NCBI RefSeq assembly: GCF_963506605.1
Contig: NC_083288.1
Span: 43,090,001 to 43,154,000, forward strand
Direction: 5' to 3'
Length of the DNA: 64,000 nucleotides
DNA from: Zootoca vivipara
Taxonomy: Eukaryota
Position numbers and translations under genes: made by a program. This document shows positions 10,956-23,410 of this stretch, in pieces; the first letter of the stretch is position 1; the number at the start of each line of letters is the position of its first letter. The notes below the pieces were generated by a model. The model ran no database searches. It saw only the letters and a list, made by a program, of their open reading frames with translations, and was not told where the DNA came from.

Positions 10956-11375
10956 TCTGTTGGCCTCATCTTGCTTTTTCTTAGCTCACCTGCCACTTGC
11001 AATCCCATAAATGACCACAGGCGGTTTCTATTGAGCTGTAATAACTACATTTCCTCTGTACTAGCACAGAGAAACTACAACAGTATTGACTCATGCAGCC
11101 CATAATCATCAAAATTGCCATGGTTAATTCTACTTCTTTTCAAGTCCCTATAGATTTCCAGTGAACACGGCAAAACAATGAAGTCTGAATGATGTCGTTA
11201 ATATTCCTTGCTCCATTTGGAGCTGGGTCTAGAGACAGATTTATAGCCTTCCACCCTTCTGATTATTTTCATTGTCAGGGCTTCCAAATCAACCTATGGT
11301 GTGATTGTTCTTGCTATTTCAGTAATCATGTTAGAAGAGTCAAATTGGTGACTGGGAGGTAGATTTTCAGTCAAT

Positions 11376-11593
11376 ATGGTACTATTCATGGTCTCAATAT
11401 TAGTGTTCCTGCCTTATATGATATGCAGTGTTCCTGTTGCCACATACACTGCTGACACTCCTCTTTCTATTATGCACAATTATTATCATTCAGGAGATCT
11501 CATCATTGCTGGAATTATTTCTCAGATCTACATGACATTTGATTCAATGGATTTCAGAGGACATCCATCTGAGAAACTGATTGATGATATCAT
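11376..11593 (+). CDS. V2R: V2R-B exon 1
   Basis: 218 nt, hydrophobic N-terminus, SGDLIIAGI. Confidence 0.87.
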
Positions 11594-12873
11594 GTACGAA
11601 GTAGCTGTTTTTAATCATATCATAATATCCACAGGCGTTTTGATCTGATGTCTTTGGGTTTATGTGGGTGGGGAGTGATTGCCAAAAAGACAGTCGATCT
11701 GCTTTTAGATTCTTCTTGGATGCGGCTGCATCTCAATTTTTTAAGTTAGCTCTTTCACTGTAGGATTCAGGATTTCCATGCCACAAGTTATAATTGATGG
11801 AGGTTGGCAGGGATGCATACGTCATTCCAGCCTACCTACATCAGTGAGGTGTAGATAGGCAAAACTTTGATCAGGTTTAATTGCTGTTTGAAGTACTTAA
11901 TTTAACATTGGAATGGGAGAGATTATCAGGGGGTTTGGGCTGGGTGTTCATCAGTATGCAGATGATTCCCAGCTCTACATCTCTTTCAAATCAGAACCAG
12001 TGAAGGCGGTGAAGGTCCTGTGTGAGTGTCTGGAGGCGGTTGGAGGATGGATGGCAGCTAACAGATTGAGGTTGAATCCTGACGAGACAGAAGCACTGTT
12101 TGTGGGAGACAGGAGGAGGGCAGGTGTGGGGGACTCCCTGGTCCTGAATGGGGTAACTTTGCCCCTGAAGGACCAGGTAAGCAGCCTGGAAGTCTGGCAT
12201 GGGGGGGGGGATGGCCTTCCGGCTGACTGTCTGCCGGTCCCTTCTTCCACTGCTCTCTCTCCCTCCCCCTGGAGCAAGGGCTCTCTGATGCTGTCAGAGC
12301 CTTGGTTCTCCCTTTCTGTTTCCTGGCTCTTGTAACCTGATCCTGTGCTTGACTTACTGCTTGGAGAGGAACTCGACCTGATGAGGGGGGGGGGGTGTTC
12401 CCTGTAAGCCTTCCCCCTTACAGTATACTTTTACACTCTCATTATTGCCCTAGATAATATTATTCATTGATTCTTCATTCACCAAGCTACTTCTCCCCCC
12501 CCAATAAATTCAATGCATTGTTGACAATGATTTAGTTGTTTATTTAGTTGTACCTTGGCTGTTGTTTCTGTGGGTTTCCTTTACCATGTGTCCAGCTAGA
12601 CTTTTCCAACCACAGATTGTGCTTGCAGTCACTCCCACAATACCTGTTCCAGTAAACTGGAATTTTCAGGCTTCTATTTAATCTCTATAATCCTTATATT
12701 TAATCAATTGTGTGATATACAGCATATGTAAACTATATATGTAGATATGCAACTATATAAATATATAGGTATGTATGCATAGCACTTTCTAAAATTCCAA
12801 CAAGTTGAAATCTCCAATACAGGAATGAGTACCAATGTTTCTTCACAATTCTCTGCACTGCAAACATATTATC

Positions 12874-20300: not shown

Positions 20301-23300
20301 TCGTGAAGCTGAGGCTCCAATACTTTGGCCACCTCATGAGAAGAGAAGAATCCTTGGAAAAGACCCTGATGTTGGGAAAGATGGAGGGCACTAGGAGAAG
20401 GGGACGACAGAGGACAAGATGGTTGGACAGTGTTCTCGAAGCTACGAACATGAGTTTGACCAAACTGCGGGAGGCAGTGCAAGACAGGAGTGCCTGGCGT
20501 GCAATGGTCCATGGGGTCACGAAGGGTCGGACACGACTGAACGACTAAACAACAACAACATACCCGAAGTTCTGTTCATGAACAGCCCTGGAACCTTGTA
20601 AATCTACTCTGGATTTTCCCTCCGCCCTCCAGAGCAGGTAAGAGTTAGATGTGGAGATAACACAGAGAGAGAAGAGAACCCTGCATTTCATTGCACAAGC
20701 AGAAATTATTGCTGCAGTGCATCTAATTTGTTTCTGACTGCCAATTGGAATTAATAATCCAAACTATTGATGTATATATCAGGCTCCACAGGCATTGATT
20801 GATTGATTGATTTTTTTAATTTTTGCTATTTCAAAGGTGACATAACCATTGCTGATGTAACAAGTGACGCCACTGTATCTTTTTTGTAACAATTTCTGTA
20901 AGGGCTTTATGTGGGTGGTTTATTTATTTATTTTTTAAAAAGTTGTTAACTTTTAAAAACTTTTTAAAAAAATTTAAAACAAATTTTATTAGGAAAATTC
21001 AACAATATTACATATATATTACAAACATATTACAAGCCTAACCTTACATACAATATTTCATACATTCTTATTTGGAAATACAATACTGACTGCACACATC
21101 TACATACTCATTTCCCCCACCACCACCCGATGTGATAGACTTCCAATCACATCAGCTCTAATTTATTTTACATTCCATTACTTTCTCTTGCATACTGTTA
21201 TCTCTATACACTTCTTATCCTTCTTTACTATAAATACTAACTAATACTAATTAATATTTCATATATCATTTTCATCTTCCTGTTTCTCTATATCAGACAT
21301 CCCCAAACTTTGGCCCTCCAGATGTTTTGGACTACAATTCCCATCATCCCTGACCACTGGTCCTCTTAGCTAGGAATCATGGGAGTTGTAGGCCAAAACA
21401 TCTGGAGGGCTGCAGTTTGGGGATGCCTGCTCTATATGTTTATTACAGAACTTGTCTTAATCTGATATAAGTTCCAGCTTTTCAATATACTTTTTAAAAT
21501 ATTCTTTAAACATCTTCTATTCTTTATCCGTTTTTTCTTTTGAAACCCTTCCAACATTCCCAATTAATTTGACCAAATTATAATATTCTATGAATTTTGC
21601 TAGCCACTCTGTTTTCGTTGGTATCTGGACACTTTTCCATTTTTTTCCTAACAGTAGCCTCACAGCCACTGTTGCATATAGATACAATACCTTGTCTGCT
21701 TCCTTTAAATTTACTGGCACTATTCCCAATAGAAATCCTTCTGGCATCTTCTTGAATATTCATTTAAACATTTCATTAAAAATAAAATCCCAACATTGTT
21801 TAATATTAGCACAGTCTCACCAAATATGCATCATGATTCATGATTCAAAAATGTTTTTAAATGTACCGTAGTACTATATTTTGTTGTAAGGCATCTGAAA
21901 GCTCAGGGGGAAGGGTTGGTAATAAAGTAAAATAAAGCCAATCAAATATAATATAGAACATGATTTCAGAGAAATATGGTGGAATTCATTATAACCAATC
22001 TGATGACTGAAGGCATTCCCGGATCACTGCTAATTTGATATTTTTGGCAGACATAATACTGGGTAACGAAATAATCCAAAACATAGGGCATCTGATCTGC
22101 ATGCAAAAGGTCCCAGATTCAATCCCAGCATCATCGATCTGAAATGCTGGAGAGCCTTGGACACTCTGCAGAGAAAATTATGAGCCAGGGAGATCAATAG
22201 TCTAATCTGCTATAAGGTAGATTCCTGTGTTCCTGTGTTATGAGAAGATTTCCCCAATATAAATACACTTACTTACTATAAGGAAGATGCTTCTTCTACC
22301 AAATGAAACAGCTTCCTCCAAGGGAGAACAGTAACTGTTTGAAAAAAAAAAAAACTCCACTGAATGTAATTTGTTGAAGAAAAAAGCTTGGCTTTTACAT
22401 TTATGTGAGCTTCCTTGATTCAGGACTTCATAGTACTAACGCTTAAATACTGCAGTGCACTATGTATTGCCGTTTTTATTTTAAAGAAAACCATGTTTTC
22501 CTTTCCAGACATGGATGCGTGTTTTCAATGTCCAGAAGACCAGTATCCAAATGACCAACATGATTCCTGCATTCCGAAATATACAAGTTACTTATCTTAT
22601 GAAGAACCTTTGGGATTATGTTTCGCTGTTTCTGCTCATTCCTTATCTGTTCTCACGTTTTTGGTACTCAGAGTCTTCATTAAGTACTGGCATACTCCCA
22701 TAGTCAAAGCCAACAACAGGGACCTCACCTTCGCACTCCTAATATCCCTCCTGCTCTCTTTCCTTTGCGCTCTGCTCTTCATTGGCAAGCCTAATAAGGT
22801 GACCTGTCTCCTTCGACAAATTACTTTTGGTCTCATCTTCTCAGTGGCGGTTTCTTGCATATTGGCCAAAACCACCATAGTGATTTTAGCTTTCATGGCT
22901 ACCAGGCCAGAGTCCAGTATCAGGAGATGGGTGGGGAATAAATTGGCCATTACCATTGTTCTTTCCTGCTCCCTAATTCAGACCAGTCTTTGTTGTGTGT
23001 GGCTGGCAACATCACCCCCATTCCCAGATCTAGACATGCGCACAATGACTGAAGAGATTGTGCTTGTATGCAATGAAGGTTCAGTCACCATGTTCTACTG
23101 TGTCCTGGGCTTCATGGGCTTCCAGGCCACAATCTGCTTCATTGTGGCTTTCCTGGCTAGGAGATTGCCTGACACGTTCAATGAAGCCAAGTTCATCACC
23201 TTCAGCATGTTGGTCTTCTGTAGCGTATGGTTGACCTTTATCCCAACCTACCTGAGCACAAAAGGGAAATACATGGTGGCTGTGGAGATCTTCTCCATTT

Positions 23301-23410
23301 TGACTTCTGGTGCTGGGTTACTGCTCTGCATCTTTTCCCCCAAATGCTACATTATTCTGCTTAGGCCTGACTTGAACAAAAGAAAACAGCTGATAAAGAG
23401 GCCAAACTGA
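11376..23410 (+). CDS. V2R: V2R paralog B, intact 6-exon gene, 873 aa
   Basis: join(11376-11593,13024-13315,13654-14508,15918-16145,17041-17167,22509-23410) = 2622 nt; all GT/AG, phases 2-0-0-0-1 consistent, no internal stops. Confidence 0.92.
11915..12194 (+). mobile_element. L2 RT fragment, truncated homolog of 1330-1819; also 27070-27349
   Basis: YADD motif; same 5' junction as in A. Confidence 0.85.
12195..12422 (-). mobile_element. Probable LTR terminal fragment; also 27350-27579
   Basis: Minus strand begins TGTAAGGGGGAAGGCTTACAGG; abuts intron sequence GTATACTTTTA that is uninterrupted in D (~41628). Confidence 0.5.
12876..12913 (+). repeat. (TG)n(CG)n alternating purine-pyrimidine tract; homolog ~28034-28066
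   Basis: Direct reading. Confidence 0.95.
13024..13315 (+). CDS. V2R: V2R-B exon 2
   Basis: 292 nt; [42 protein letters not shown]. Confidence 0.93.
13654..14508 (+). CDS. V2R: V2R-B exon 3
   Basis: 855 nt; [43 protein letters not shown]. Confidence 0.94.
15113..15894 (-). mobile_element. Solo LTR (782 bp), antisense in intron 3 of B
   Basis: Minus strand TGCAGG...CCCCAACA; TATAAAA (~15728-15734) upstream of AATAAA (~15203-15208); imperfect 5-bp TSD TTGCA/TTGTG; empty sites in C (~30258) and D (~45477). Confidence 0.85.
15918..16145 (+). CDS. V2R: V2R-B exon 4
   Basis: 228 nt; [49 protein letters not shown]. Confidence 0.93.
16609..16764 (-). mobile_element. Short poly(A) retroposon (probably L1 3' end), B-specific
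   Basis: Poly-T plus minus-strand AATAAA; 16-bp TSD ATGAG(G/T)AGCAATTCAT (16593-16608, 16765-16780); absent in C. Confidence 0.75.
17041..17167 (+). CDS. V2R: V2R-B exon 5
   Basis: 127 nt cysteine-rich exon, AG/GT. Confidence 0.93.
17338..20559 (+). mobile_element. Full-length BovB LINE, 3222 bp, 1-nt frameshift at ~18860
   Basis: Same site and TSD as the A copy (17325-17337, 20560-20572); ORF split into 17424-18872 (endonuclease) and 18869-20548 (RT). Confidence 0.96.
21294..21429. mobile_element. 136-bp hAT-type MITE, homolog of 6545-6680
   Basis: Same TIRs and CTCTATAT TSD. Confidence 0.92.
22509..23410 (+). CDS. V2R: V2R-B exon 6 (7TM)
   Basis: 902 nt, class C 7TM motifs, TGA stop. 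Confidence 0.94.

Follow-up and report, generated by a model that had tools for sequence, protein, structure and literature searches.

How did the middle gene of a tandem receptor array come to resemble its downstream neighbour at one end and its upstream neighbour at the other? The question was raised by a 64,000-nucleotide stretch of the Zootoca vivipara genome (assembly GCF_963506605.1, contig NC_083288.1, positions 43,090,001 to 43,154,000 of the forward strand; hereafter the window, within which positions are counted from its first letter), located on a 55-Mb contig of a 1.44-Gb genome. Self-comparison of the window displayed four tandem units A, B, C, and D plus a more distant fifth gene, and A to D are, judging from their predicted exons and domains, tandem six-exon class C G protein-coupled receptor (GPCR) genes of V2R type. 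An earlier reading of the letters alone (hereafter the sequence-only reading) had taken B for a hybrid with a C-like 5′ end and an A-like 3′ end. B was confirmed as a real mosaic: it grouped with C from the promoter to intron 1 and with A from late intron 4 on. With a probability of roughly two in three, we favor its origin by a single unequal crossover (anti-Lepore type) in which an A gene was misaligned with a C gene.

B and C shared the following 5′ features: (i) two upstream motif variants, found only in B (11241 and 11254) and C (26395 and 26408), with the alternative forms of both motifs in A (656 and 669) and D (40273 and 40286); and (ii) in intron 1, a fragment that we take to be L2-like, cut at B 12194 and followed by the 3′ half (~230 bp) of a dispersed long terminal repeat (LTR)-like element and then by D-homologous intron 1. 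The full length of this dispersed element was ~460 bp; its full copies elsewhere ended in TG...CA, and two of the four full copies displayed had clear 5-bp target duplications. Intron 1 of A kept a longer L2-like piece with D-like sequence behind it. A and B in turn shared the following 3′ features: (i) AB-derived variants at 16873-17088 (late intron 4/exon 5); (ii) in intron 5, a 3.22-kb long interspersed nuclear element (LINE) with the same 13-bp target duplications and a 136-bp miniature inverted-repeat transposable element (MITE) with 8-bp duplications; and (iii) His617 in the first transmembrane segment, where C and D had Leu. The sites of both elements were single-copy and empty in C, and the LINE and MITE were thus insertions on the A/B side. 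The domains seen in the LINE were reverse transcriptase and endonuclease only, and its assignment to BovB is our assumption. All these shared features had been listed in the sequence-only reading and were found at the places given there. The LINE copy of A held one unbroken 1104-codon stop-to-stop frame (2489-5803), while the B copy was split into two frames; as the frame was still whole in A, the insertion is young.

All counts exclude the columns close to gaps, simple repeats, or N. With D as the outgroup, the 11 informative sites within B 10956-12194 comprised eight that grouped B with C against A with D (BC|AD), one AB|CD, and two AC|BD, and the 18 informative sites from 16867 on comprised 13 AB|CD, one BC|AD, and four AC|BD (5′ vs 3′ split: Fisher p=1.6e-4; max-chi permutation p=5.5e-4). 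The 5′ tree (802 columns) joined B with C at bootstrap 97 and rejected AB in the approximately unbiased (AU) test (p=0.009); the 3′ tree (1998 columns) joined A with B at bootstrap 99 and rejected BC (AU p=0.004), but in a 576-column 3′ subset the BC tree escaped rejection (p=0.077). No single topology therefore ran along the whole gene.

Opposite trees in the two parts do not by themselves show which of the three genes is the hybrid. B had the 5′ part of its downstream neighbour and the 3′ part of its upstream neighbour, the gene order was A-B-C, and the inter-unit junction J (Table 1) stood before B and before C and was absent before A, with the A-to-B and B-to-C junctions alike. The exact copying of J before the third unit indicates homologous unequal crossover, which yields a middle unit with the left end of the downstream gene and the right end of the upstream gene, as seen; the proposed polarity of the middle gene (C at 5′, A at 3′) was accordingly borne out by the J copies and the gene order. 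The A-to-B spacer measured 381 bp and the C-to-D spacer 208 bp, a difference of 173 bp; this compares lengths only, as the spacers were partly masked. The proposed course would comprise four steps: (i) tandem duplication of an ancestral gene, forming J; (ii) gain of the LINE, MITE, and His617 by the upstream copy and of the LTR and intron-1 deletion by the downstream copy; (iii) crossover between C of one chromosome and a still complete A of another, probably in late intron 1 to intron 2, giving A-(C5′/A3′)-C; and (iv) loss of exons 2-4 from A, internal duplication of exons 5-6 in C, and the addition of small conversion tracts.

The best-surviving rival, an unlikely one, makes A the fusion: exon 1 of A would come from an older upstream copy and its 3′ half from a twin of B, the two brought together by a deletion, and B would be a plain gene split from C over its whole length. 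A real non-homologous junction did lie in A exactly between the differently grouping parts; one extra duplication is, however, required. The distances (non-coding plus fourfold sites; AB5 and AB3 denote the A-B distance in the 5′ and 3′ regions, and so on) were 2.6% for AB5, 2.2% for AC5, and 1.7% for BC5, and 1.1-1.3% for AB3, 3.7-3.9% for AC3, and 3.7-3.8% for BC3. Tests at equal rates strained all models: a hybrid B at AC5=AC3 (p=0.009) and BC5=AB3 (p=0.08), a fusion A at BC5=BC3 (p=3e-4), and a recombinant C at AB5=AB3 (p=3e-4). A fusion in A predicts constant B-C divergence, against the 1.7% at 5′ and 3.7% at 3′ observed (the raw p above), and it predicts a step up of B-C divergence in the 3′ flank, where none was seen: the B-C distance did not rise towards J (3.8% over the last 556 sites).

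A plain equal-rate clock was found insufficient, as the 5′ flank of a neighbouring group of four paralogues evolved at about half the intron rate. Divergence among these four was 3.4% in the 5′ flank, 6.4% in early intron 1, and 6.9-7.7% elsewhere, i.e., a slow 5′ flank with a near-neutral intron 1, which speaks against the fusion of A. This second group of close V2R-type paralogues (L011-L004, 43018600-43060000) had 500-bp 5′ flanks at about half the intron rate, which suggests that its promoter may be constrained. After calibration on these neighbours (six non-independent pairs, without the 3′ regions of the last gene), the distances became AB5 3.8%, AC5 3.2%, AC3 4.0%, and BC3 3.7%, with BC5 2.5% and AB3 1.1%; they fit the two age classes that a hybrid B needs, AB5, AC5, AC3, and BC3 being alike and AB3 and BC5 lower. 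D was also tried as a rate calibrator and is possibly mosaic too. In Poisson models, the lowest Akaike information criterion (AIC) fell to a hybrid B in 7 of 12 settings, to a fusion A in 4, and to a recombinant C in 1. A hybrid B thus leads the other models, yet is unproven: of the unequal-crossover claim in the sequence-only reading, the crossover stood as the likeliest origin, whereas the choice of B rather than A as the recombinant was left unproven, since the ranking flips at half the 5′ rate.

The C-to-A switch was bounded firmly by the end of the shared LTR half (12423) and the first AB-derived base (16873), in agreement with its expected placement between intron 1 and intron 4, and it probably lay near 12.7 kb, with a soft range of ~12.5-13.5 kb (late intron 1 to intron 2). 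The best change-point in B-C divergence was 12708-12753, and the constrained posteriors over eight settings had medians of 12692-13545 and gave a probability of 0.61-1.0 to a switch before exon 3. B-C differences numbered 6 of 454 in 12195-12700 (the LTR half plus flank), followed by 12 of 287 and 10 of 330; the low first count also disfavors the fusion of A (p=0.004 at 3.5%, with the split chosen post hoc). Synonymous B-C differences numbered 0 in the 170 codons of exons 1-2 and 15 in the 358 codons of exons 3-4. From this step up near 12.7 kb, exons 3-4 of B probably derive from the A lineage, so that part of the exons lost by A would be kept in B, as had been supposed; exon 2 of B is perhaps of A-lineage origin as well. 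If the switch precedes exon 3, B would yield essentially the ancestral A receptor under the C promoter. The first A-type allele of B lay 6 bp beyond the deletion breakpoint of A, a distance too short for homologous crossover with a deleted A; the partner was therefore very likely an undeleted A, and the suggestion that B formed before the deletion of A was upheld.

Several points weigh against the crossover origin of B: (i) a hybrid B and a fusion A were only 2-4 AIC units apart after calibration, and the fusion was best in all four settings with the 5′ rate near half, a rate favored by the distances to D (~7% in 5′ vs ~14% in 3′); (ii) BC5 exceeded AB3 (1.7% vs 1.1%; 2.5% for BC5 when calibrated), and uncalibrated AC5 was below AC3 (p=0.009 raw, 0.035 with clustered changes merged); (iii) the 5′ part of A left for comparison was only ~1.2 kb; (iv) the split at 12700 was picked after the data were seen; (v) changes in exon 3 to intron 3 fell more often on the C branch, and the rise of B-C divergence there may stem from foreign sequence in C; and (vi) the main contigs of two sequencing runs had A-type letters at some BC sites (11317 and 11765), and part of the "diagnostic" BC sites may be polymorphic.

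Rather than by crossover, B could have arisen by duplication of A, with gene conversion later giving the new copy the promoter, exon 1, and part of intron 1 of C, without a change of copy number at that later step; this is improbable. Separate 5′ and 3′ ages fitted at least as well as a single age in most settings, and conversion-like patches were present in the array, i.e., in late intron 5 (A-C 1.3%) and exon 6 (one synonymous B-C difference in 301 codons). The conversion, however, predicts BC5 no larger than AB3, the opposite of what was observed, and it needs the crossover behind the duplication to have fallen no more than a few hundred bases from J, as well as a deletion-bearing tract 1.4 kb or more in length.

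Patches outside the two-block scheme were found at B 11637-11960, 14510-15110, and 22010-22345; these further patches had been missed in the sequence-only reading. Seven B-private changes lay in 11809-11960. In intron 3 (B 14510-15110, C 29659-30260), B and C differed by 9.7%, B, C, and D were about equidistant, and a contig of one run passed from B-type to C-type letters. The late intron 5 patch (Table 1) likely reflects either conversion of A by C at a time when B already existed or a tract of foreign origin in B. Exon 6 had four to six differences in 901 bp among A, B, and C, fewer than the flanks predict, and by these counts the transmembrane exon appears nearly homogenised among the three genes. 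DNA searches of this assembly with B 21000-23400 and 13600-15100 for a donor paralogue returned only A to D at 87% identity or more; among the best 40 candidates scored for each, the next-best reached 81% and 72%, respectively. With tract exchange repeated in the array, a single crossover describes the backbone only.

A third rival, very unlikely, is an assembly artefact, in which a false tandem duplication would have joined two haplotypes of an A-C pair. Logan contigs from 4 of 24 listed runs (four samples, three studies; one of the runs may be the source of the assembly) were compared with the 5′ part and middle of B. In each of the four runs, the contigs of exon 3 or introns 2-3 included pieces of B type as well as pieces or alleles of C type, the former showing, e.g., 0-3 differences where C would give 2-11. 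The staggered repeat at ~1% divergence does resemble a false duplication, and no contig spanning the switch was found among the short, collapsed Logan contigs of the four runs; the B-specific LTR junction was not seen among the contig matches listed either, which proves nothing. The middle of B, however, was 3-10% from C, and B has the exons deleted in A, so that, for B to be a chimera, the other haplotype would have to carry A at full length. The depth of exon-2 contigs was 1.7-2.6 times that of a D-specific joint, a weak hint only, as depth does not equal copy number. The contigs made a false duplication unlikely, whereas linkage lay beyond them. The weakest rival, a recombinant C with its 5′ part converted from B and its 3′ part of an older lineage, had the lowest AIC in its one setting by 0.4 and is in line with the long C branch in exon 3 to intron 3, but it predicts AB5=AB3, against the 2.6% and 1.1-1.3% seen (p=3e-4 to 0.03), and it was at least 11 AIC units behind the best model in all eight calibrated settings, so it can be given hardly any weight.

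Both putative parents carried rearrangements in this assembly. A had lost exons 2-4, and splicing of its exon 1 to exon 5 would hit a stop at amino acid 91. The internal duplication of C (30506-37623) spanned the end of exon 4, exon 5, and two thirds of exon 6, with 27 bp of filler; the path through the first copy stopped at amino acid 801, that without the first copy was an open 871-aa frame, and the product of C is accordingly predicted to be truncated unless one copy is skipped. The duplicate halves had one substitution in 3442 aligned bases, and the duplication is either very recent or an assembly artefact. More tentatively, and short of even odds, B would have rescued receptor A, combining its ligand-binding and transmembrane exons with the C promoter, after which the parents decayed and left B as the only working descendant. 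The protein effect of hybrid formation is predicted to be small: B and A were identical in exons 1 and 5 and differed by 3 residues in exon 6, and B and C differed by 20 residues plus a 2-residue indel, with half of the substitutions in exon 3.

An unequal-crossover hybrid in a gene cluster is the product of a known, ordinary mechanism, and B, a real mosaic, is most likely an instance of it. Like the anti-Lepore globin fusions described in PMC4041002, B had the 5′ end of the downstream parent and the 3′ end of the upstream parent with both parents flanking it; unlike B, the globin parents differ in promoter strength, and the effect of the fusion was measured. The A/C parents were only ~3-4% apart, exon 1 was identical in A and B, and B is known from sequence alone. 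According to the same paper (2014), the parents of such globin fusions are typically inactivated later, and conversion can mimic the crossover pattern. The CYP11B1/CYP11B2 chimera and the KIR and glycophorin hybrids also arose by unequal crossover in tandem paralogues, and, as far as the accessible accounts go, they have phenotypes and population genotyping, which sets them apart from B. No hybrid gene was described in the available part of the squamate V2R expansion paper (Brykczynska et al. 2013, PMC3590772), and among the literature hits listed (15 of 35 and 15 of 20), none of the titles and abstract beginnings described a hybrid or converted V2R gene, which is no proof of absence.

If the crossover origin holds, B would be a well-marked, transposon-dated example of V2R array growth and turnover; single-exon V2R trees could mislead; a "lost" receptor could survive inside a hybrid neighbour; and B would offer a small test of the effect of a promoter swap on receptor choice frequency. 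If B rescued A, the globin pattern in which a fusion supplants its parents would be repeated in a reptile chemoreceptor array. No new mechanism was shown, and the receptors were only ~20 residues apart.

Table 1. Coordinates of genes, blocks, junctions, and inserted elements in the window
Feature	Position	Strand	Details
Gene A, pseudogene	791..8651	+	Exon 1 791-1008, exon 5 2286-2412, exon 6 7750-8651
Deletion junction of A	2092..2112	+	D-like intron 1, short A-rich filler, late intron 4 (= B 16867)
Inter-unit junction J	10746..10770	+	Start of 5′ flank fused to upstream sequence of A; same at 25910
C-type block of B	10956..12423	+	5′ flank, exon 1 (11376-11593), part of intron 1
Gene B, six exons	11376..23410	+	GT-AG introns, open 873-aa frame
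Exons of B	11376-11593, 13024-13315, 13654-14508, 15918-16145, 17041-17167, 22509-23410	+	218/292/855/228/127/902 bp
L2-like piece, cut, intron 1 of B	11914-12194	.	Deletion common to C
Half of solo-LTR-like element, intron 1 of B	12195-12423	.	Deletion common to C
Hard interval of C-to-A switch	12424..16872	+	Bounds 12423 (end of shared LTR half) and 16873 (first AB-derived base)
B-only LTR-like insertion, intron 3	15111..15893	+	Ends ~25 bp before exon 4; C and D empty
A-type block of B	16867..25394	+	Late intron 4 to 3′ flank; 1.1-1.3% from A, 3.7-3.8% from C (non-coding plus fourfold sites)
LINE (endonuclease and reverse transcriptase), intron 5 of B	17338..20559	+	A copy 2592-5814; C empty
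136-bp MITE, intron 5 of B	21294..21429	.	8-bp target duplication; in A too; C empty
Late intron 5 patch, A groups with C	22010..22345 (A 7257-7592)	+	A-C 1.3%; B 4.7-5.5% from both
His617 codon, first transmembrane segment	22637..22639	+	A too; Leu in C and D
Gene C	26530..37871	+	Internal 3.57-kb tandem duplication (30506-34043/34071-37623)
Gene D, outgroup paralogue	40407..48437	+	Open 873-aa frame

The domain searches placed ANF_receptor in exons 2 and 3 of B, NCD3G in exon 5, and 7tm_3 in exon 6, all above the Pfam cut-offs. The nearest solved relative was the calcium-sensing receptor, and the relatives named by an Atlas search were of class C only. V2R genes have six exons, with exon 3 mostly ligand-binding (PMC4316634); B matched this layout, its coding exons numbering six, with exon 3 large and the transmembrane region in one exon. 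A genome DNA search gave at least ~40 related exon-3/exon-6 places clustered on two contigs, and membership in such a large clustered paralogue expansion is unlike the single-copy CaSR, GPRC6A, and T1R. From their structure and clustering, A to D are putative V2R genes. The setting of the array is presumably that of squamates.

The B-only insertion in intron 3 ended where the branch point is expected (~25 bp from the exon 4 acceptor) and could affect exon 4 splicing. Other B-only insertions, not in C, were of at least 360 bp in the 3′ flank (25395-25755) and ~155 bp in intron 4. The fifth receptor gene (55218-62208) lay after D, towards the end of the window, with an exon DNA identity of ~70%.

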